DNA of 64,000 nucleotides from a bacterium (lineage in GTDB: Bacteria > JAAXHH01), in the NCBI GenBank assembly GCA_965262815.1, contig OZ253560.1, positions 2,868,582-2,932,581 of the forward strand, in the 5' to 3' direction. Shown piece after piece: positions 2,714 to 64,000 of the stretch; the first letter of the stretch is position 1; each line of letters begins with the position of its first letter. The position numbers and the translations under genes are program-made. The notes beneath the pieces are model-generated. The model was not told the DNA's origin and did not search any database. It saw only the letters and a list, made by a program, of their open reading frames with translations.

Positions 2714-4072
2714 ATGCGTATACTCCGATCGGCCGCGCTTTCGATTGACAAGTCCGTTGCTAGAGCGGCCGATTTGTTCGATTTCTCCCGCGGACGTCTC
2801 CCGCCCGGCACCCTTACCGCCGCCGCATGGCCCGGCCTGGTCCGGTCCCTGGTCCGACAGTTCAAGCAGGGCGTCGCCGGTGTAACGGGTACGAACGGCA
2901 AGCACACCACTTGCCGGATTCTGGCTGCGATCCTCCGGCAGGCTGACGCCCGCACGCTTTACCCCGATGATATCGCCCCTTCCATTGACGAAGTCGTCTC
3001 CACGCTTGTCCAGGCCACGGACCGCCGCGGCATGATCCATGCGGATTACGGTGTATTCGGTTTTGAAACCGGAATGCTGGGCAGGGCGATCAGGGTGTGC
3101 AGTCCACACACGCTGGTGCTGAACAACCTCTACCAGGACGAATTGAACCAGGAGGTCGATCCTGGTACACTGGTCGGAGAATGGAGCAATTGGTTCGGCA
3201 CCATGGCAGCCGGCCACAACATCCTCGTAAACGCGGACGACCCGGTCCTCTGCGGCGGATTCACACGCGGTGTTCCGCCGCGGCTGACCTACTTCGGCGT
3301 GGAAGATGAACGCCAGCACCTGGAGCATGCGTCCACGCCGGAGGTGCCGTGCCACCGGTGCCGCACCCCCCTCGCCTACCGAATCAACTGCCTGGCCCAT
3401 CTCGGCGACTACGCCTGCGAAGGCTGCGGGTGGGAAAGACCGCTGCCTACGGTCTATGCAATCGATGTGGAACTGGGAACGGAAGATTCCTGCTTCCGGC
3501 TCATCACGCCGCGGGGTCCCCTGGACGTCCGTCTCCGGTTGTCGGGACTTCATAACGTGTACAACGCTGTGGCGGCGGCGGCGGCAGCCGTCACCCTCGG
3601 CCTGAGTCCCGTGACGATACGCAAGGGGCTCGAAGCGGTAACGTCGACAGGCGGGCGGGACGAACGGGTGGTGATCCATGAAAGGGAAGCGCACCTGATG
3701 ACGATCAAGAACAGGACATCGCTGCACGAAGCGCTCAGAACCTGCCTGTTGGAACGCAGACGCGGCCACTACCTGTTTCTCCTGGACGAGGCGGTGCAGG
3801 ACGGAAAAACAGGGCCATGGATCGAGGACTGCGACCTGGAAGGTGTGGTGGACCGGTCAAGGTCCGTCCATGTGGCCGGAGCAGGCGGCGCGCACCTGGC
3901 CCTCATGGACGAGCAGATGGACGCGGAAGAGATGGCTTCGGCCGCGGACGTCAGCGACGTATTCCACGATATCATGCGCCGTCTCACGCCGGGCGACCGG
4001 CTGTGGGTCCTGGCGACCGAAGGCGCTATGTTCGCGGTCAGGCAGGAATTGAAGGAAATGGGGATACTTTGA
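2714..4072 (+). CDS. murT: Mur ligase family protein, MurT-like (lipid II isoglutaminyl synthase subunit; Mur-ligase central domain + Cys4 ribbon + DUF1727)
   Basis: GVTGTNGKHTT P-loop (Mur ligase), LVNADDPVL, Cys4 ribbon CHRCRTPLAYRINCLAHLGDYACEGCG, GLHNVYNAVAAAAAAVTLGL and GRDERVVIHEREAHLMTIKN align motif-for-motif with S. aureus MurT. No gatD neighbour. Confidence 0.75.
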   Translation: MRILRSAALSIDKSVARAADLFDFSRGRLPPGTLTAAAWPGLVRSLVRQFKQGVAGVTGTNGKHTTCRILAAILRQADARTLYPDDIAPSIDEVVSTLVQATDRRGMIHADYGVFGFETGMLGRAIRVCSPHTLVLNNLYQDELNQEVDPGTLVGEWSNWFGTMAAGHNILVNADDPVLCGGFTRGVPPRLTYFGVEDERQHLEHASTPEVPCHRCRTPLAYRINCLAHLGDYACEGCGWERPLPTVYAIDVELGTEDSCFRLITPRGPLDVRLRLSGLHNVYNAVAAAAAAVTLGLSPVTIRKGLEAVTSTGGRDERVVIHEREAHLMTIKNRTSLHEALRTCLLERRRGHYLFLLDEAVQDGKTGPWIEDCDLEGVVDRSRSVHVAGAGGAHLALMDEQMDAEEMASAADVSDVFHDIMRRLTPGDRLWVLATEGAMFAVRQELKEMGIL

Positions 4073-4084
4073 ACGATCGCCGTA

Positions 4085-4858
4085 TCAGTTCCACGGCGGC
4101 CGGTCGCACCCTTCGAAGGGATAGTGATCGCCGGTCCGGAAACGAGGAAGCGGAGGATAGTAATTGATACCGTCCACGACCTTGCCGCGGCACAGGTAGG
4201 CGGGGAAGTTCTCCCGCTTGATGCGCGTGGTCGTGGGAATGTAACGGAGCGTCAACCCGCACCGGCGCCTGTCGGACAGGTTGGCCTTCGAACCGTGAAT
4301 CAGGTAGGGATCGTGCAGGGATACGCCCCCCGCCGGCACGACGACGTCGACCGCCCGGGATTCGTCCACCTTCAAATCCAGTGCCGAACGCAGGACATTC
4401 TCCCCATCCGACGTGCGGTGCCTGTACAGCTTCTGATCCGCGTGGCTCCCCGGTACAACCCGCATGCATCCGTTCTCCGGGATCGAATCGTCCACGGCCA
4501 GCCAGATCGTAATGACCTCCATGTGTTCAAGCGGCCAGTAGTTTCCATCCTGGTGCCATAACACCGGCTGTCCGTCGCGGGGCGGCTTGCTGATGTAGTG
4601 GGCCGCGAAGAGCGCGATATCGGGACCCAGGAAGGGTTCTATGAGGTCGATCAGGCGGGGGTCGGTACACAGTCGGATCCAGAACGGATCGTCCACGATC
4701 AGGTTGTGGTGGTACTGTTCCGGCCGGACGTCGGGATACTTCCCGCCCATCCATTCGATATGCCCCTGGGCTTCCTCGGTCAGATCCTGGTCGATGACCC
4801 CGGGCAGGACGACATAACCGTCTTCTTCATATTTCCGTACGATATCGGTACCGTTCAT
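4085..4858 (-). CDS. Phytanoyl-CoA dioxygenase (PhyH) family Fe(II)/2-oxoglutarate-dependent oxygenase
   Basis: LWHQDGNYWPLEH...IWLAVDDSIPENGCMRVVPGSH...LSDRRRCGLTLRYIP: HxD...H facial triad and Arg of the PhyH fold. Close paralog of 38732..39565. Confidence 0.8.
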   Translation of the reverse strand: MNGTDIVRKYEEDGYVVLPGVIDQDLTEEAQGHIEWMGGKYPDVRPEQYHHNLIVDDPFWIRLCTDPRLIDLIEPFLGPDIALFAAHYISKPPRDGQPVLWHQDGNYWPLEHMEVITIWLAVDDSIPENGCMRVVPGSHADQKLYRHRTSDGENVLRSALDLKVDESRAVDVVVPAGGVSLHDPYLIHGSKANLSDRRRCGLTLRYIPTTTRIKRENFPAYLCRGKVVDGINYYPPLPRFRTGDHYPFEGCDRPPWN

Positions 4859-5179
4859 CAGGGTAAATTCCTATCGTTCGTGTTCGAGGTGTTTGCGCAG
4901 TGCGCGGCCCACGACGCCGATCTGGTGCTATAAATCCTGATACGTGTAGCTCTGGTGACGGCCACAGTTTCAGGTAGGTTTTCGCAACCCGGAAAATAGT
5001 GCAGTTCGCACGAATCTGTCAAGAGCGATCCGGTATCGGCGGCGACCGAAGATCGTTGCCCACGGTTGCCAGGCAACCCTTGAAACCACCGGTTTCGCCC
5101 GGATTCACCACCTGGTTCAAGGACGAAAACCACCTCGGTGAACGGGTGCTGGGACCGTACCTTTAAAATAAAGGAATGG

Positions 5180-5208
5180 TTGACACTACACCGGGGAACA
5201 TGTATCTT
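5180..5208 (+). promoter_or_regulatory. Putative sigma70-type promoter for korAB (-35 TTGACA 5180-5185, 17-nt spacer, -10 TATCTT 5203-5208)
   Basis: Read directly in the 440-bp intergenic region, about 90 nt upstream of the korA ATG. Confidence 0.35.
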
Positions 5209-5300
5209 GATGATTCCCATTATTCTTTGCATCACCCGACAACAATTCGTATGCAGTTCTGCAAATCAGCTTGTCCGTGATATACAGACTGGAGAAACCG

Positions 5301-7145
5301 ATGAGTTCAGACAGATTCGACTTTGCCATTGCCATAGGCGGCGCGGCGGGCCAGGGAATCGCCACTCCAGGCAATGTCCTCGCCCGGATTTTCATCCGCC
5401 GCGGACTGCACCTCAACGCCTACAATGCCTACCAGTCGATCATCCGGGGCGGCCATATATTCCTCACAGTGAGAGTCAGCGATCAACCGGTGCACAGCCA
5501 TGGCGACAAACTCGACCTGTTGGTCTGTCTGAACCAGGATACGATGGATCGGCACCTGGGCCTCATGGGGCCGGGTACGTGGGTCCTCTACAACAGCGAT
5601 ACGATCACGCCCGGGGTCCCGGCGGCCGGCGTCCACAGTTGTCCTCTTCCCATCGCCGAACTGACCGACAACAACCGCAACAAGCTCGTGCAGAACACCG
5701 TTTCACTCGGAACGATCCTCAAACTTCTCGACATGGATTTCCAGATCCTGGAAGACATCCTCACCATGCAGTTCCAGCGCAAGGGCCAGGACGTGGTCGA
5801 CGAGAATGTCGGCGTGGCGCGTGCGGGTTACGACTATGCCGCCACGCACTTTGAGCCCTTTTCAATGCCGGTACCCACCGGCGACAAGCCGATGGCGGTC
5901 TGGACGGGCAACGACGCGCTGGCCATGGGCGGCGCGGCGGCGGGCGTCAAGTTCTACTGCGCCTATCCCATGAGTCCATCCACGGGCGTACTCCACTGGA
6001 TGGCGCAAAACGCGCGGGAGCTGGGCATCATGGTGCGGCAGGTCGAAGACGAGATCGGCGTGGCCAACATGGCGATCGGCGCAGCGCACGTGGGGTGCCG
6101 GTCGATGTGCGCGACGTCGGGCGGCGGTTTTGCCCTGATGACCGAGGCGGTCGGCAGCGCCGCCATGATGGAAATACCCGTTGTTTTCATTGACGTGCAG
6201 CGCGCAGGACCATCCACGGGTGTGCCCACCAAGACGGAGCAGGGCGACCTCTGGCAGATACTCGGCGCGAGCCAGGGGGATTTCGAACGGTTCATCGTGG
6301 CGCCCACGGATGCCCTGGACGCCTTCAACACCATGCCCGAACTTTTCAACCTGGTGGACAGCTACCAGTGTCCGGGCATCGTGATATCGGATCTGCTGAT
6401 CTCCGAAGGCACCTTCAGCGTCGACCCGGAAGACATCGATATGCAACCGAACATAGAGCGGGGCGCGTTGATTACCGAGCCGGCCAATGGCGCGAGCGAC
6501 ATCCCGACGGGCTCGCAGGAGGCCAACGGACACGGGCTCATCGGAGCCCCGAGCAACGGTTACCTCCGGTATGAAAACACCGAAAGCGGCGTCTCGCCAC
6601 GGGCCCTTCCCGGCGTGGAAGGTTACGCCCATGTGGTGGCCTCGGACGAGCACGACGAGGATGGCGTCCTGGTGAGCGACGAATTCACCAATCCCCACAA
6701 GCGCCGCAAGATGGTGGAAAAACGCGCTCGAAAATTCAAGGATATCTCGAGCCGGATCAATCCGCCCGGACTCTCCGGAGCCGAAGACGCCGAGATCACG
6801 CTCATCGGCTGGGGTTCCACCCTCGGCGTGATCAGAGAAGCGGTGGAAATCCTCAGCCGTGAAGGCATCGCCGTCAACCACCTCCCGGTCAGATGGATCG
6901 TCCCGCTCCACGTGGACGCCATTCAGGAGGTCTTCGACAAGGCGAAACGGACGGCTATCGTGGAGAACAACTATTCCGGTCAATTCCATCGCTATCTGCG
7001 CAGCGAAACGGGTTTGACGGCGGACGGCCATATCAGGAAGTACGATGGCGAGCCGTTCATGCCCCATCATATCGTGGATGGCGTCAAAGAACTGCTGGCC
7101 GGCACAACGAACTGCTACGTGCCCTATCAAGAAGTCATCGTCTAA
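5301..7145 (+). CDS. korA: 2-oxoacid:ferredoxin oxidoreductase alpha subunit (fused gamma-alpha, KorA/OorA-like)
   Basis: DFAIAIGGAAGQGIATPGNVLARIF (gamma-domain GGxGQG) followed by the alpha pyruvate-flavodoxin oxidoreductase core. Start moved to ATG 5301 (GGAGA RBS) from ORF-track 5271. Confidence 0.85.
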   Translation: MSSDRFDFAIAIGGAAGQGIATPGNVLARIFIRRGLHLNAYNAYQSIIRGGHIFLTVRVSDQPVHSHGDKLDLLVCLNQDTMDRHLGLMGPGTWVLYNSDTITPGVPAAGVHSCPLPIAELTDNNRNKLVQNTVSLGTILKLLDMDFQILEDILTMQFQRKGQDVVDENVGVARAGYDYAATHFEPFSMPVPTGDKPMAVWTGNDALAMGGAAAGVKFYCAYPMSPSTGVLHWMAQNARELGIMVRQVEDEIGVANMAIGAAHVGCRSMCATSGGGFALMTEAVGSAAMMEIPVVFIDVQRAGPSTGVPTKTEQGDLWQILGASQGDFERFIVAPTDALDAFNTMPELFNLVDSYQCPGIVISDLLISEGTFSVDPEDIDMQPNIERGALITEPANGASDIPTGSQEANGHGLIGAPSNGYLRYENTESGVSPRALPGVEGYAHVVASDEHDEDGVLVSDEFTNPHKRRKMVEKRARKFKDISSRINPPGLSGAEDAEITLIGWGSTLGVIREAVEILSREGIAVNHLPVRWIVPLHVDAIQEVFDKAKRTAIVENNYSGQFHRYLRSETGLTADGHIRKYDGEPFMPHHIVDGVKELLAGTTNCYVPYQEVIV

Positions 7146-7157
7146 GGAGTCCCAAAC

Positions 7158-8078
7158 ATGTCAGTGGAAACTTTAACCCGTGACGAAGTGGAAGAAACAC
7201 CGGCAGTACCGCTGAAAGCGAAGGATTTCAAGGGAAAGGTAGATCCCGACTGGTGTCCCGGTTGCGGTGATTTCGGCGTATTGAGCAGCCTGCAGCGGGC
7301 CTGCGTCAACCTGGGCCTGCGACCCCACGAGGTACTCACGATCAGCGGAATCGGGTGTTCGTCGAATTTCCCCGGATACTTTAATTCCTACGGGATGCAT
7401 ACACTCCACGGTCGTTCGCTTGCGGTGGCCACGGGCGCGCAAATGGCGAACCACGAACTCACCGTTTTGGTCACGGGCGGCGACGGCGACGGATACGGCA
7501 TCGGTGGAAACCATTTCACCCACACGGCGCGGCGCAATGTCGACCTGACCTATATCGTCATGGACAACCAGATCTACGGGTTGACCACGGGCCAGGTTTC
7601 CCCGACCAGCAGTATCGACATGCGGACCAAAAGCACACCCTTCGGCAGCGTGGAAACGCCGATCAATCCCATCACGGCGGCGATCATGAATGGCGCCACC
7701 TTCGTGGCGCGGGGATTCAGCGGCGACGCGCGGCACCTGACCCAGCTCATCGAGCAGGCCGTTCAGCACCGGGGCTTTGCATTGATCGACGTATTCAGCC
7801 CCTGCGTCACGTTCAACAAGGACAACGACTACCCGTTCTTCAAACAGCGGGTCAAGAAGCTGGAAGACGAAGGCCACGACCCGAGCGACTGGAAAACAGC
7901 CTGCGAAAAGGCCCTGGTCTGGGGGGATGAAATCTACACCGGCCTGTTCTTTCAAAAAACGGACGCGCCCACGCTGGGTGACCAGGAACCGGTGCTGGAC
8001 GAAGGCGGCGCGCTGGCGCGGCGTGATCTGGGAATCAGCCAGGAGCAGGCAGGCCGGATTGTCAAGCGGATGATGTAG
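7158..8078 (+). CDS. korB: 2-oxoacid:ferredoxin oxidoreductase beta subunit (TPP-binding, KorB)
   Basis: DWCPGCGDFGVLSSLQRA...GIGCSSNFPGYFNSYGMHTLHGRSLAVATG...GGDGDGYGIGGNHF is the TPP-binding GDG motif. It begins 13 nt after the korA stop. Confidence 0.9.
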   Translation: MSVETLTRDEVEETPAVPLKAKDFKGKVDPDWCPGCGDFGVLSSLQRACVNLGLRPHEVLTISGIGCSSNFPGYFNSYGMHTLHGRSLAVATGAQMANHELTVLVTGGDGDGYGIGGNHFTHTARRNVDLTYIVMDNQIYGLTTGQVSPTSSIDMRTKSTPFGSVETPINPITAAIMNGATFVARGFSGDARHLTQLIEQAVQHRGFALIDVFSPCVTFNKDNDYPFFKQRVKKLEDEGHDPSDWKTACEKALVWGDEIYTGLFFQKTDAPTLGDQEPVLDEGGALARRDLGISQEQAGRIVKRMM

Positions 8079-8097: not shown

Positions 8098-8757
8098 TCA
8101 GATGAAGGGGCTTTCCTGCAATTCCCGGTGCACGGCGCGGTAGAGGGGGACCGGCGAGGCGCTTTCTTCCCCGCGTTCACCGTCGGTGGGCTCAATCATG
8201 TTCAGCGACAGGACCTTGTCCCTGAAACTCCGTGTCTCCATCCCTTCGCCAAGACCCTGTTCGTACACACTCTGCAGCTCTACCAGGGAAAATTCGTTGG
8301 GAAGCAGCAACAGGGCGATATTGGTGTAATTCAGCTTGGCTGCGATTCTTTCCGTGCACACCTTCAGAATCTCATTGTGATCGTAGGCCAGCGAGGGGGT
8401 ATCGTTAACGTAAAACCACTCCCCCCTGCGGTACTTGTCCACGGGTCCGAAGGGATCGCCGGGGCTGTCGGGAAACCCCATGTAAGCCGTCGAAATAGTA
8501 CGTCTTCTAGGGTCTCGGTCGATGGCGGAGAAGGTATAAACCTGCTCGAAATAGGCGCTGACCTGACCCGTTGCCTCGCGAAAGGCGCGACGGACCGCCG
8601 ACTCCAGGTCTTCCGTTTCAAGAACCAGCGTTCCGGGTAGTGAAAACCGGCCTACGAACGGTTCGATCTTCAACTCGACCAGGTAGACCAGCAACTTGCC
8701 ATCGAGGAATCTGAAGATCCCCAGGTCCGTGGCCGCGTATGGTTTGGTCGGAATCAT
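8098..8757 (-). CDS. NUDIX-fold protein with C-terminal NrtR-type winged-helix domain (putative NrtR-like regulator)
   Basis: N-terminal NUDIX-like fold with a degenerate Nudix box (LPGTLVLETEDLESAVRRAFREATGQ). C-terminal roughly 90 aa resemble the NrtR DNA-binding domain. Confidence 0.5.
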   Translation of the reverse strand: MIPTKPYAATDLGIFRFLDGKLLVYLVELKIEPFVGRFSLPGTLVLETEDLESAVRRAFREATGQVSAYFEQVYTFSAIDRDPRRRTISTAYMGFPDSPGDPFGPVDKYRRGEWFYVNDTPSLAYDHNEILKVCTERIAAKLNYTNIALLLLPNEFSLVELQSVYEQGLGEGMETRSFRDKVLSLNMIEPTDGERGEESASPVPLYRAVHRELQESPFI

Positions 8758-59928: not shown

Positions 59929-61911
59929 TCAGTTGATGAAGGATTCGAACTGGTGGGGCGTGGCCGGAAACCAGAGGCTGTCCACCAGGAACGAAAGCGC
60001 CATACCCACGACGTAGCCCACCAGGATGCCGAGGAAGAGGGGTTGCACCTTGCGGTACAGCGCTCCCCCGCCCAGGCGCAGCAGGATCACCTGGATGAGC
60101 CAGGCCAGCAGGAACGGCAGGAACATGAACCGGACGGTGTCCGCGGCCACGGCGACGAGTCCGATGGGATGCAGCGGCCACCAGAGAAAGAGGAAGCGCC
60201 CCAGGATCATCAGCATGTACAGGGCGACGCCGTTGCCGAAAAATACCAGTTCAAGTCCCGAAACACTACTCGCGCTGCTGTTCCACTGCATGATGGTATT
60301 GTAGAAGAACGGCACGAGATCGCCGGGCTTGGATAGCAGGTTGTCGGCGCCCACGGCGTAACCCGCGCTGATGTAATAATACAGCGAAGCGACGACGCTC
60401 ACGGCGAAGGACAGGCAGATCCACAGGAAGAGGTGCCGGGTGGCCGGCTGCATCCAGCGCTGGAGATACGCGGTGTGGGACAGCCCGATCATCGTGAAAG
60501 TCCGCCAGTTCCGCGCAAAGGCGTTCGTCATGCCCAGGGCGGTGATGGTGGAAGAGTTGAGGTTGTCGGCGCCGATGATGCCCGCGGTAAACACGTTGGC
60601 GTTCACCGGCAGGTCCATGGCGACGAGGCCCGCCTCGGCGACGATCCTGGCCATGCCGAGGTATACGATGAAGAGGACGGCGAGCAGGGCCAGGCTGACC
60701 GGCAGCGACATGCCGATGCTGTAGAGCCAGCCCAGCAGGTAGATCAATCCGAAGATCATTCCGAACACCGCTGTTCGGTAGGAGAAGAACTCCTCCCGGT
60801 CATCCACCGCCGGATCCTTACGGAACGCCCGCCTGCCCACGGCGGCCAGGTGATGCCGGGCCATCCAAAGTCCCCAAACCACCAGGGCGATCAGCGCGCC
60901 GATGGACTGCGTGCCCACCAGGCCGGTGGGTGACATCGTCGTTGCCGCCGTAACCCCGAGCATGTTCAGTACGCCGCGTTGCAGCGTCGTGAGCAGGAGG
61001 AAGAAGCAAAGGCTGAACAGGATCTCGGCATTGACAAAAAAGGCGAAACAGAGCACGAAGACATTCAGACGGATGGGAAGATCGGGGATCGACGGGTGCA
61101 CCTTCACGTACACCAGGTCCGGTCCCATGATGGGAATCGGTGAAACAAAGCCCCAGTAGGAAACGATATTCCAAAGCACGACGGCCAGCGACAGGACGAC
61201 GCCGATCCGGAAGGCGTTCGTGCGGACCATGGGCGGCCTGTCTTCGTCCTTTTGCAATCCCATCAGGTTGAGCGCCACCTCGCCCAGGGGGAAACGCAGC
61301 CTTTCGTGGCTGACCCACTGCTTCCTCAGGATGACCACGATGCACGCGCCGGTCCACATGAGGGCGGCAAAACACGACATCCACCACAGCAGGGGCGAGA
61401 TCCAGGCCATCCACGGGATGTCGTACCCGGGGCCGGCCCCCTCGTAGAAAATCCGTACCGCGTCGGTCTTGTCGCTGATCACCAGCCACGCGGGCAGCGT
61501 GTCGAAGAAGGTTTCCGCCCAACGGATTTCGGGACTCGCGTGATAGAAGGGTCCGGTAATGATGGAGACCAGGTACCGTGTCATGCCCCAGTCGGGTACC
61601 ATCGAACCGATCAGGCCCATGGCGAAAATCACGACCAGTTCGGAGGTTTTCAGGGTGTGCCTGGGCGCCAGGATCTTCAGCAGGACGTGGGGTCCCAGGA
61701 TCAGCACGAGGAAGGGGATAAGCAGCGCCGAGGGCAGATGGGCGTAGGTGACGTAGTTGTACCCGGCGTGGTCGGCGGCGAACTGTCCCCAGACGGCCAC
61801 CACGGCGGAAAGCCCTAGACCGATGATCCCGGCCCGCAGGGTTACGGCCGTTGATCCGCGGTTTCGAGGTGGTTCCGGGGAAATGGAATACCTCCGTTCA
61901 TGTTGCGGCAC
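59929..61911 (-). CDS. Large polytopic membrane protein, paralog of 54035..56029
   Basis: 660 aa, GTG start, same conserved blocks as its paralog. Lies between a PhyH gene and a sulfatase in one minus-strand operon. Confidence 0.7.
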   Translation of the reverse strand: MPQHERRYSISPEPPRNRGSTAVTLRAGIIGLGLSAVVAVWGQFAADHAGYNYVTYAHLPSALLIPFLVLILGPHVLLKILAPRHTLKTSELVVIFAMGLIGSMVPDWGMTRYLVSIITGPFYHASPEIRWAETFFDTLPAWLVISDKTDAVRIFYEGAGPGYDIPWMAWISPLLWWMSCFAALMWTGACIVVILRKQWVSHERLRFPLGEVALNLMGLQKDEDRPPMVRTNAFRIGVVLSLAVVLWNIVSYWGFVSPIPIMGPDLVYVKVHPSIPDLPIRLNVFVLCFAFFVNAEILFSLCFFLLLTTLQRGVLNMLGVTAATTMSPTGLVGTQSIGALIALVVWGLWMARHHLAAVGRRAFRKDPAVDDREEFFSYRTAVFGMIFGLIYLLGWLYSIGMSLPVSLALLAVLFIVYLGMARIVAEAGLVAMDLPVNANVFTAGIIGADNLNSSTITALGMTNAFARNWRTFTMIGLSHTAYLQRWMQPATRHLFLWICLSFAVSVVASLYYYISAGYAVGADNLLSKPGDLVPFFYNTIMQWNSSASSVSGLELVFFGNGVALYMLMILGRFLFLWWPLHPIGLVAVAADTVRFMFLPFLLAWLIQVILLRLGGGALYRKVQPLFLGILVGYVVGMALSFLVDSLWFPATPHQFESFIN

Positions 61912-61917
61912 ATTATG

Positions 61918-62745
61918 TTACTCGATCCAGGGATCCATACGGAACAACTTGCGGCCCAGCGGCGTCAGCATGGCCAGTGCCTCGGAACTCATGGACCGGT
62001 CGGGTCCCGGGGCGAGACGGGCCTCTTCGCCCTCCAGGGGATACAGGCGGGTGAAATGGGCGACCCTGGGCACACTTCGGTGATTGGCGCTGGCGGCGTG
62101 GGGCATCAGGTGGTGCATGAGCACGAAGTCGCCCGCGTCCCCTTTGACCTCCACCGACGGCGGAAAATCAACGACGTGGGTCCATGTGTCGTTGCGCGAT
62201 AGTCCTTCCGGTTCGTTGAGCATGACGTCCCTCACCCTGTTCGGCGCGCCGGGAATAACGTGGATGCCGCCGCCGTTTTCTTCGACGTGAGACAGGTAGT
62301 AGCATCCGCCGATGCCGATACCGTGGCGCAGGAATGGAGGGTTCAGATCCTCCGGTCCGCCCGGCCGCGCGTCCAGGTGCAGGTTTTGAATGCGCCCTTC
62401 GCGCCCTTTATCCCGCAGGGTAATCCCCACAGAGCCGTCTCCCACCCGGATGCAGTCGGTTTCGAGGATTTCGGCCGCGGCCCGGTAGAGCCCTTCGTTT
62501 TGAAGCAGGGGAAGCAGCGCCGGACTGTAGAAACTGTGGTTTCCGTCGGTGTGCATGGGTTTGATCCTGCCGCAGTACGCGATATAGTGGTCCGGCAGGG
62601 AAAGGTCGCGGGGGATCAAATCAAGAATGGCGTTGCGGGCGGTTTCCACCGTAGCGGCGTCCAGGGTACCCTTCAGCACCAGGTAGCCGTCGGACCAGAA
62701 TTGCTCCAGTTGTTCGCCGGTCAGGTAACGGGGGGTCTCGTTCAT
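61918..62745 (-). CDS. Phytanoyl-CoA dioxygenase (PhyH) family oxygenase
   Basis: FWSDGYLVLKGTL...IHVIPGAPNR...VLMHHLMPHAAS. First gene of the minus-strand PhyH-membrane-sulfatase operon. Confidence 0.75.
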   Translation of the reverse strand: MNETPRYLTGEQLEQFWSDGYLVLKGTLDAATVETARNAILDLIPRDLSLPDHYIAYCGRIKPMHTDGNHSFYSPALLPLLQNEGLYRAAAEILETDCIRVGDGSVGITLRDKGREGRIQNLHLDARPGGPEDLNPPFLRHGIGIGGCYYLSHVEENGGGIHVIPGAPNRVRDVMLNEPEGLSRNDTWTHVVDFPPSVEVKGDAGDFVLMHHLMPHAASANHRSVPRVAHFTRLYPLEGEEARLAPGPDRSMSSEALAMLTPLGRKLFRMDPWIE

Positions 62746-62791
62746 GGAACGCTAATAAACATTTTAGAATTAAAAAATGCGGGTACAAAAC

Positions 62792-63205
62792 TTAAGGGCA
62801 GGTGTCTTGTCTCAACAGTTTTTTGTGTTTCGTGGTTTGGTAAACACTCCCGTTAACAACAGATTTAAAGTCAGTATGCAGATTGGTGTCGCCCGAGACT
62901 AACAGCTTAACCTTGGCTATCCTGGCCAAGGCGATTATATCAGGGTCGTCAGATTTCAGTTGAGGTAATGATCTTTTATCCTGTTCAACTTCTCTTGCTG
63001 GATATTGTTTCAGTTTTCCATTTTCTCTGAATTGATCAAACTGCTTTCTCATCTTGTCGTGTTTTTCCAATTCTTGTTTCAATTTTAATGTCGGTGAGTA
63101 CACCATCTTACCATTTTTGCTCATCCATTTTCTTACGAGTTCCATATCTTGGTTTTCAGGATTTACATACTCACTAAATTTGTTGGTATCTAAAATAAGA
63201 CACAT
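62792..63205 (-). CDS. PIN-like small protein (putative nuclease/toxin component) in low-GC islet
   Basis: 137 aa. N-terminus MCLILDTNKF is the canonical first acidic PIN motif. Later acidic residues lie in DPDIIALARIA and LVSGDTNLHTDF. Starts 10 nt downstream of the ATPase stop. Confidence 0.5.
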   Translation of the reverse strand: MCLILDTNKFSEYVNPENQDMELVRKWMSKNGKMVYSPTLKLKQELEKHDKMRKQFDQFRENGKLKQYPAREVEQDKRSLPQLKSDDPDIIALARIAKVKLLVSGDTNLHTDFKSVVNGSVYQTTKHKKLLRQDTCP

Positions 63206-63215
63206 AAATGTACTT

Positions 63216-64000
63216 TCAATTTGTAAAACCTAGTAACCTATCCGATTCATTTATGAAAAAGTTTCTATAGCCAGGTGGAGCACCTATAAGATTGCCTTGT
63301 TTGTCGAAACTTATATTGTGAACTCTCACTCGGTTGCCAACAGGTTCTAAGTATATAAGTGAGACATCCTGTGGTGCGATTACACCATTCATGATTTCAA
63401 TTCGTGCTCTATTTACCATAGCATCACTATGAGTCTCAATCACATATCTGTGCTTCTTGCTTTTAATGGTTTCAATCAACATTGAAGACAGTTCAGCTTG
63501 GCCTTTGGGATGTAAATGTACCTCTGGCTGCTGCATTAAGAAAACCGTCTTAGAGTATGCGTTGTAGATTCGGACAAGGATCGGAAGAATTTGACTCACT
63601 CCGTATCCCACATCAGTGAAATTTACTTTAGGTCCTTTTACCTTAATCTGTAGTTGATATGGATCGCCAATTGACTTCCCCAGTCTTCTGACATTTACAT
63701 CGGTAAACAAGCCAGATGATTTTCCAAACTTAATTAAACTGTCTCTTAGTTCACCCCATCTATCCTTATTCGCTCTTGACATATTCATAATCAACATCGG
63801 GATGTCGATTCCTTCTGGGTTCTCTTCCTCTTTAAACGGATTGTAGGTGCGTTGAGGTTTAGAGCGCACCGGAGCAAAACTGACTATATCAGGTTGGTCA
63901 AACCTACTATTGCTGAAGAACAAGGAACTAGGTTTTATATCGAGTAAATTCGAAATAGCATTTCTGAATTTCTCAAAAACTCTAAAGTTCTTGGGTACTG
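63216..64000 (-). CDS. ABC-type (AAA_21/AAA_15-like, DUF3696-type C-terminus) ATPase, C-terminal part; N-terminus beyond window end
   Basis: VFLMQQPEVHLHPKGQAELSSMLIE is a Walker B/D-loop. IETHSDAMVNR is an H-loop. Walker A lies outside the window. Locally low GC. Confidence 0.6.
   Translation of the reverse strand, partial: VPKNFRVFEKFRNAISNLLDIKPSSLFFSNSRFDQPDIVSFAPVRSKPQRTYNPFKEEENPEGIDIPMLIMNMSRANKDRWGELRDSLIKFGKSSGLFTDVNVRRLGKSIGDPYQLQIKVKGPKVNFTDVGYGVSQILPILVRIYNAYSKTVFLMQQPEVHLHPKGQAELSSMLIETIKSKKHRYVIETHSDAMVNRARIEIMNGVIAPQDVSLIYLEPVGNRVRVHNISFDKQGNLIGAPPGYRNFFINESDRLLGFTN

Follow-up and report, generated by a model that had tools for sequence, protein, structure and literature searches.

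A probable two-gene anti-phage system that pairs an OLD-type ABC ATPase with a standalone, predicted PIN-domain RNase

Introduction

What does an abrupt low-GC islet encode in an otherwise GC-rich bacterial chromosome, and is it one of the gene pairs in which an ATPase controls a nuclease to stop phage infection? The islet lies at the end of a 64,000-nucleotide (nt) stretch of contig OZ253560.1 (assembly GCA_965262815.1, positions 2,868,582 to 2,932,581), referred to here as the window. It contains the 3' part of a gene for an ATP-binding cassette (ABC) ATPase, followed by a gene for a 137-amino-acid (aa) protein that resembles PIN-domain RNases. We present evidence that the two genes are probably a self-contained anti-phage system of the abortive-infection type, in the class that combines an ABC ATPase with a nuclease effector.

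Two systems that combine such proteins are known. HEC-03 (Hma-embedded candidate 03) from Pseudomonas cichorii is an ABC ATPase and a PIN protein (WP_025259138 and WP_025259137) that protects E. coli, requires both genes, and is toxic on induction (10.1101/2024.01.29.577857). Menshen consists of NsnA, NsnB, and NsnC. In AlphaFold3 predictions the C-terminal tails of NsnB (DUF3696) clamp the PIN-like domain at the N-terminus of NsnC. The D-E-D-D residues are missing from that domain, the toxic activity resides in a C-terminal nuclease fused to it, and NsnA (ParB-DUF262) is the proposed sensor (PMC12065111). The Walker B motif of NsnB is reported as E-N, and HEC-03 or active-PIN relatives are not mentioned in that paper (PMC12065111). 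An earlier note on the window, made from its sequence alone, had stated that no ATPase and PIN combination of this kind could be named. That statement does not hold: HEC-03 is a validated combination, and Menshen has the same type of ATPase with a PIN-like domain.

Results

The ATPase and PIN genes are a conserved pair

The ATPase gene and the PIN gene occur together. We took the best 80 loci (L003-L082) from a scan of one genome per species and found an ATPase homolog directly upstream of the PIN gene in 79 of them; the remaining locus is cut by the end of its contig. Because the same pair is present in 79 of 80 related loci, the association is far beyond chance. Spacers and motifs were compared in the 75 of these loci that have an intact ATPase open reading frame (ORF). 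The distance from the end of the ATPase gene to the start of the PIN gene was -1 to +73 nt, mostly 1-10 nt. All-against-all clustering of the flanking ORFs revealed no third gene common to all loci. We read the pair as a defense system because of this strict adjacency across phyla and because of its embedding in type III restriction-modification operons (see below), and both agree with the two-gene, defense-type organization that the earlier note had suggested.

The pair was found in many phyla, largely in lineages of the sponge-microbiome type. The 80 loci included 21 from Poribacteria, nine from Latescibacterota, and seven from Binatia, along with others from Entotheonella, Porisulfidus, Poriferihabitaceae, and further taxa (sponge habitat was read from the taxon names in record titles). 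Groundwater and soil metagenome-assembled genomes appeared only among the weakest matches of the 80. A tblastn search with the PIN protein found no match in PLSDB plasmids or GenBank phages. Among plasmids the ATPase matched only DUF3696 proteins of 22-30% identity, all of which belonged to genuine HEC-03 loci.

In at least 13 loci the pair is inside a type III restriction-modification operon, in the order Mod, ATPase, PIN, Res, and the stop codon of Mod overlaps the start of the ATPase gene (Table 1). The hosts of these loci belong to Binatia, Entotheonella, Gammaproteobacteria, Nitrospirales, and Poribacteria. PADLOC models identified the genes that flank the pair as MTase_III (5e-101) and REase_III (4e-22). 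Between phyla the Res proteins retain 74-90% identity, and therefore the four genes move as a unit. The four-gene cassette is a restriction-modification system that has been transferred across phyla and has a second defense embedded in it. Further immediate neighbors at other loci were a type I REase, another type III MTase, mad3/LmuB-like ATPases, and a PDC-M37B/DolB-like protein; the remaining neighbors were mostly housekeeping genes, according to a Pfam scan of 126 flanking ORFs in which the 25 most frequent families were listed. About 60 of the 80 loci, including that in the window, have no adjoining restriction-modification genes.

The embedded loci raise the possibility of a retaliation module. 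PrrC, in which an ABC-type ATPase and an RNase are fused, is found within type I restriction-modification systems. This embedding was also remarked on by Payne et al. By analogy with this precedent and with that of RloC, the pair would be kept latent by the restriction-modification complex and would fire when an anti-restriction protein of a phage disables the complex, and solo copies would be remnants or would rely on a distant system. The position between Mod and Res, the overlap of Mod with the ATPase gene, and the spread of the cassette across phyla are all consistent with this model, and in both cases an ABC-type NTPase regulates an RNase within restriction-modification operons. However, PrrC is one protein chain, its nuclease is not a PIN domain, and it belongs to type I systems, whereas the lineage described here has two genes, a PIN protein, and an association with type III systems in a minority of its loci. 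Furthermore, the approximately 60 solo loci still have intact ORFs and catalytic residues, and HEC-03 was functional when cloned alone. We consider it quite unlikely that the pair is primarily a retaliation module.

The small protein has a predicted PIN fold with conserved acidic residues

The identity of the small protein was not evident from sequence searches with the window protein. Its match to the Pfam PIN family (PF01850) was 13.7 bits (E 0.1), under the cut-off of 23.6 bits. A search of PDB sequences with the PIN profile gave a best E of 0.19, to unrelated proteins, and solved VapC structures were undetectable by sequence.

The predicted structure and the conserved residues identify the protein as a PIN domain. 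An AlphaFold2 model built from 32 homologs had a mean predicted local distance difference test (pLDDT) score of 91.2 and the three-layer alpha/beta/alpha arrangement of PIN domains, and its top matches in Foldseek were PAE0151 and VapC proteins, with a probability of 1.0. On the model, D6 follows strand 1 (residues 2-5), E45 is in the third helix (40-48), D87 is after strand 3 and before the helix at 88-97, and D106 follows strand 4 (101-103), with D112 nearby. D6, E45, D87, and D106 are kept in 72-74 of the 75 genomic homologs. In a wider alignment of 67 members that extends down to 29% identity, each of them is either invariant or conserved to at least 90%. In that wider set, 40 of the 67 members reached the PF01850 threshold (best 3.9e-11). 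An exhaustive profile search gave 1715 representative clusters at E<=1e-3, indicating a family of approximately 1,700 clusters at 50% identity, and almost all of the matches listed were standalone proteins of approximately 130-160 aa. The earlier note had made the PIN assignment from the N-terminal motif MCLILDTNKF; the assignment stands because of the fold and the conserved residues, not because of that motif alone. We conclude that the small protein is a PIN domain with its four catalytic acidic residues present, and that it looks active.

The similarity to VapC would also fit a module for toxin-antitoxin function or addiction. In such a module the PIN protein would act as the toxin, in the manner of VapC, the ATPase would serve as a large antitoxin or regulator, and the module would function in stabilization of the locus or in stress dormancy rather than in phage defense. 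Several observations are in keeping with this. VapC toxins are the nearest structural relatives of the PIN protein and share its acidic active-site residues, the Pfam text for AAA_21 (a family found in the ATPase, see below) reads 'putative AbiEii toxin, type IV TA', induced HEC-03 is toxic, and the clade of the window has kept the pair at a single chromosomal site where no other defense genes are present. In contrast to VapBC, there is no small DNA-binding antitoxin like VapB, and the upstream partner is always an ABC ATPase of approximately 450 aa (464 aa at the islet). The repeated embedding in type III systems and the validated defense phenotype of HEC-03 also argue for defense. The two functions are not exclusive, as abortive-infection systems are often like toxin-antitoxin systems. 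We think it unlikely that the pair is an addiction module without a role in defense.

The ATPase is of the OLD type and has an unusual Walker B motif

The ATPase belongs with ATPases of known defense systems. The window contains only its C-terminal part. We obtained the full-length protein (464 aa) from L001, a 3.73-Mb contig that was found by an exact-sequence match to the 137-aa protein and that supplies the missing part of the islet. In Pfam, the window part matched AAA_15 (1.3e-12) and AAA_21 (1e-8), and these two families span the full-length protein. In PADLOC, the window part matched NsnB (6e-29), PDC-M55A (1e-28), and HEC-03B (2e-24), and its tail aligned to the ends of all three models. 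With all 464 aa, the best match was NsnB (4.4e-37, 127 bits; residues 3-460 aligned to positions 2-343 of the 345 in the model), followed by PDC-M55A (1.3e-36, 125 bits), HEC-03B (1.3e-24, 85 bits), and AriA (8e-20); the scores of AriA, GajA, PtuA, and Old were far under those of NsnB, PDC-M55A, and HEC-03. BLASTP alignment with the validated HEC-03 ATPase gave 27% identity over 190 aa (E 8e-19). Searches of NCBIfam and PHROGs gave only a weak match to a retron-Eco8 effector and a PHROG of unknown function. The names of the HEC-03 proteins are inverted between sources: in PADLOC-DB v2 (models PDLC04147 and PDLC04148) HEC-03B is the ATPase and HEC-03A the PIN protein, and in the preprint HEC-03A is the ATPase and HEC-03B the PIN protein. 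We use the PADLOC names.

The tail of the ATPase (residues about 396-464) is DUF3696-like, as the earlier note had stated, in the sense that it is homologous to the ends of the NsnB, PDC-M55A, and HEC-03 models and that distant plasmid relatives (22-30% identical) carry the NCBI name 'DUF3696 domain-containing'. A direct match to Pfam DUF3696 (PF12476) was not obtained at E<=1, and the family was absent from the precomputed Pfam annotation of 120 homologs.

The nucleotide-binding motifs are highly conserved and one of them is not canonical. The part in the window contains DVGYGVSQ, VFLMQQPEVHLHP, and ETHSD, and in the comparison of homologs the corresponding trio was DVGYGVSQ, FLMQQPEVHLHP, and ETHSD. 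Among the 75 homologs the Walker A motif GENSTGK[TS], which contains K36, is invariant, the signature is DVGYGxxQ, and the H-loop is ETHSD. A Walker B motif is indeed at the site that the earlier note had given, in a form (hhhQQPExHLHP) that has two glutamines, Q360 in 75 of 75 homologs and Q361 in 73 of 75, where OLD-type ATPases carry D-E. ABC ATPases with an E-to-Q change bind ATP and dimerize, and they hydrolyze little ATP. The replacement of DE by QQ would therefore be expected to allow ATP binding and dimerization with little hydrolysis, and by analogy the ATPase more probably works as a switch or clamp that binds ATP than as a rapid hydrolase.

Foldseek searches with an AlphaFold2 model of the ATPase matched heads of SMC and Rad50 proteins, GajA, PtuA, OLD, and retron-associated PtuA. 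A housekeeping pair for DNA repair or RNA processing, with a RecF/SbcC-like ATPase and a PIN nuclease, would account for the SMC/Rad50-like fold and for weak matches to SMC_N and AAA_23 at the N-terminus of the ATPase. However, the SMC_N match (E 0.12) is under threshold, and the full-length protein has neither a coiled coil nor a fused nuclease; it is of the OLD type with NsnB as its best match. Other properties also argue against a housekeeping function: GC content approximately 24 points under that of the genome, patchy spread across phyla, mosaic recombination, and the lack of homologs among PLSDB plasmids and GenBank phages and of an equivalog in NCBIfam. This explanation is very unlikely. 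Neither of the two outcomes that the earlier note had named as contrary to its reading, a small protein lacking the acidic residues of PIN domains or a housekeeping RecF/SbcC-like ATPase, was observed.

The pair is related to HEC-03 and Menshen and, by PADLOC models, is a member of neither

The pair in the window has the organization of HEC-03. HEC-03 is a 461-aa DUF3696 ATPase followed by a 157-aa VapC-like PIN protein, the two genes overlap or abut, and both the gene order and the tight coupling are the same in the window. The catalytic glutamate of Walker B is gone in both (FMEQPE in HEC-03, with E-Q at the site of D-E; FLMQQPE in the window lineage), and both occur inside other defense operons.

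The two lineages are nonetheless distinct. On the PADLOC models, plasmid loci of Azotobacter and Aeromonas that are genuine HEC-03 reach 440 bits for the ATPase and 95 and 81 bits (9e-28 and 3e-23) for the PIN protein, whereas the window scores 85 bits for the ATPase and has no PIN match. Only one of 32 members of the PIN family matches the HEC-03A model, at 0.016. The plasmid loci (L083:2941-5559 and L084:2365-4993, on pAcX50e and pAsa9-like plasmids) carry a conserved third gene, for an 'RNA ligase family protein', immediately behind the PIN gene, and this gene is absent from the window lineage; its presence hints at a pairing of RNA damage and repair. Their hosts differ as well, Proteobacteria and Bacillus plasmids for HEC-03 and uncultured sponge-type lineages for the pair described here.

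The pair also resembles part of Menshen. The window ATPase matches NsnB best and end to end, including the C-terminal tail, both have a GxG signature instead of SGG and a non-canonical Walker B motif, and in both systems the partner begins with a PIN fold. NsnA was not found upstream, where the gene is a PhyH gene, and no DUF262 was among the 25 families listed from the flanking ORFs. The PIN protein is standalone (137 aa) with D-E-D-D intact, in contrast to NsnC, which is an inactive PIN domain plus a C-terminal nuclease. The references for Menshen are Millman 2022 and Li et al. NAR 2025 (PMC12065111).

The resemblance to NsnB and to the start of NsnC could indicate decay from Menshen, in which NsnA and the C-terminal toxin of NsnC were lost and the pair became non-functional or was left with residual function. 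The PIN-like domains of Menshen lack D-E-D-D, and the family described here keeps it; almost all of the 1715 clusters are standalone proteins of approximately 140 aa; and DUF262 is absent from the 25 most frequent neighbor families listed. Conservation of this depth is incompatible with decay, and a direct relation would look like an ancestral active-PIN state. We regard decay from Menshen as highly improbable.

Other defense systems share the ATPase and differ in the effector. In PARIS (AriA/AriB), Septu (PtuA/PtuB), Gabija (GajA/GajB), and AbiL/HEC-01, an OLD-type ABC ATPase akin in sequence and fold controls a nuclease effector; those effectors are Toprim/DUF4435, HNH, or Toprim plus UvrD helicase, whereas the partner in the window is a PIN protein. 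Judged by the PADLOC models, the window lineage is neither HEC-03 nor Menshen and is classed here as a separate, unnamed lineage of a known class.

The islet consists of the two genes alone

The boundaries of the islet are sharp (Table 1). In 300-nt windows the GC content is 0.62-0.64 up to approximately position 62650 and 0.33-0.40 across 62800-64000, matching the reported drop from about 62% to under 40% at the PhyH gene that starts at 62745. The ATPase frame (63216-63998, minus strand) is open for 260 codons to the window edge, or 235 counted from the first TTG, with its stop codon at 63216-63218, and the previous description of at least 235 C-terminal residues with ETHSD, and of a 137-aa protein encoded 10 nt downstream, was accurate.

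Table 1. Positions of the islet features in the window and of corresponding features in related loci
Feature	Location	Strand	Remark
OLD-type ABC ATPase, 3' part (260 codons + stop)	63216..64000	-	Frame open to window edge; N-terminal 204 codons beyond
ATPase-PIN spacer, 10 nt	63206..63215	-	From sequence; fits a tight operon
137-aa standalone PIN-domain protein, predicted Mg-dependent RNase and effector; start MCLILDTNKF	62792..63205	-	ORF
AT-rich spacer, 46 nt, downstream edge of low-GC islet	62746..62791	.	Borders GC-rich PhyH gene (start 62745)
Full-length ATPase, 464 aa	L001:8596-9990		100% identical to window over common part
137-aa PIN protein	L001:10001-10414
Mod-ATPase-PIN-Res loci	L009:2252-9127 (from OZ242288.1); also L010, L011, L015, L018, L022-L024, L028, L029, L031, L070, L072

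Extension into L001 confirmed that the window truncates the system. The whole islet there (L001:8540-10460, corresponding to approximately 2,631,400-2,633,300 of OZ245326.1) is approximately 1.9 kb with two genes only, it is bordered on each side by PhyH genes, and GC content is approximately 0.6 again within 100 nt of either end. Beyond the window edge, L001 adds only the N-terminus of the ATPase and then another PhyH gene, without a third component. No integrase, tRNA gene, or att or target-site repeat was found around the L001 islet, and promoter and terminator matches there were not in significant excess. Short two-copy repeats of 10-20 nt (e.g., AAGACACCTG at 8472 and 10398) were dismissed as chance. 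An exact look-up of the flanking PhyH protein, made in search of an empty site, matched no record.

The surroundings of the islet (window 59929-62745; L001:1-20414) are GC-rich and contain, in 20 kb, at least six paralogs of PhyH-family dioxygenases. Sulfatases, cupins, and two membrane proteins of the DUF6785/DUF6784 families are also encoded there. The islet looks like a co-directional insertion into an apparent cluster for utilization of a polysaccharide or a sulfated substrate.

The pair is mobile and its parts recombine separately

Base composition is consistent with horizontal acquisition of the family. In 67 of 68 full-length loci the GC content of the pair was lower than that of its flanks, and the islet in the window is approximately 24 points under its genome. 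In the clade of the window, the pair is at the same site in about ten related genomes (L004-L008, L014, L016, and L017; match at 6001, flanks 3700-7700), where PhyH genes border it and a DUF6785 gene follows downstream. Horizontal acquisition, as proposed in the earlier note, is thus upheld for the family, and the first insertion in this clade was not recent. The same-site copies are 17-24 GC points under their flanks although their PIN proteins are just 55-73% identical. This points either to a long stay without amelioration or to a hotspot at which the pair has been replaced repeatedly.

One recent event may be visible in the window itself. Window positions 62722-64000 and L001:9206-10484 are 100% identical over at least 1279 nt, and identity ends at 62722, just inside the PhyH gene. 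The flanks of the two differ by about 4-5% (95.7% identity; 4.9% difference), and the second-longest identical run in 11 kb has 544 nt. The pattern points to a recent exchange of the cassette between two strains or to its gene-specific sweep. The observation concerns one strain pair only: L001 and L003 (public chromosome OZ245326.1), which had been considered as independent strains, have 0-1 differences per 100 nt and are one genome.

The operon is a mosaic. Between L001 and L017 the ATPase core is 92% shared, as against only 58% for the PIN protein. Conversely, in the comparisons L014/L016, L056/L059, and L069/L073, the PIN proteins are 87-92% and the ATPase tails 88-95% shared, and the cores only 52-59%. 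The module of tail plus PIN and the core of the ATPase therefore recombine separately.

Single loci departed from the usual arrangement. In L027 (2445-5994) the ATPase gene is split by an insertion of approximately 2.2 kb with a 618-aa ORF on the opposite strand, in L070 (2863-5989) two tandem ATPase paralogs are upstream of one PIN gene, and in L013 (4669-5981) the ATPase gene is frameshifted.

Discussion

The adjacency of the two genes across phyla and their repeated placement within type III restriction-modification operons favor a self-contained anti-phage system. Several observations weigh against this interpretation. The neighbors of the islet in the window itself are metabolic genes and not defense genes. 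The PIN protein of the window has no match in the PADLOC (E<=1), NCBIfam, or PHROG models, and hhalign comparisons with HEC-03 PIN proteins were weak (72% over 43 columns for one, 1.5% for another). The AlphaFold2 model of the ATPase is of moderate quality (pLDDT 72, with low scores in segments 54-70, 135-151, 192-201, and 229-276). Finally, recombination of the tail together with PIN fits a contact between them, yet adjacency alone could explain their co-inheritance. Among the alternatives, the toxin-antitoxin and PrrC-like explanations both overlap with the defense interpretation, and decayed Menshen and a housekeeping pair are unlikely.

If the pair is a defense system, it might work as follows. 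Oligomers of the ATPase would use the C-terminal tail to grip the PIN protein and keep it inactive, as in the AlphaFold3 model of NsnB-NsnC and the solved complexes of PtuA-PtuB and AriA-AriB. The poorly conserved insert regions of the ATPase, which correspond to the segments with low pLDDT, may sense a phage cue. A nucleotide-dependent conformational change would then free or activate the PIN RNase, and the RNase would cut host or phage RNA (tRNA, rRNA, or mRNA) and halt translation before phage progeny form.

A more detailed model is tentative, and we are doubtful that it holds in full. The lineage could be the active-PIN sister, or the ancestral state, of NsnB-NsnC, in which a hydrolysis-impaired ATPase with QQ senses ATP and clamps a live PIN RNase, and in which the module of tail plus PIN and the sensor core are swapped independently. 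It would be a habitat-specific cassette in at least 12 phyla of the sponge microbiome, and some of its members would be PrrC-like back-ups to type III systems that fire when restriction is disabled.

The architecture of ATPase plus nuclease and its logic are already established; the lineage itself is currently unannotated. The PIN partner matches no PADLOC model and the ATPase is ambiguous (NsnB, PDC-M55A, or HEC-03), so that current defense finders would miss the system. The lineage connects two systems that had been described separately, HEC-03, in which the PIN is active, and Menshen, in which it is inactive and a toxin has been added, and it offers a minimal model for control of a PIN domain by a DUF3696-type ATPase. 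The conserved QQ in Walker B poses the question of whether ATP binding is enough or hydrolysis is required. The near-restriction of the pair to metagenome-assembled genomes of the sponge-symbiont type across many phyla, together with its embedding in type III systems, recommends it as a practical marker for following gene flow and phage pressure in the sponge habitat.

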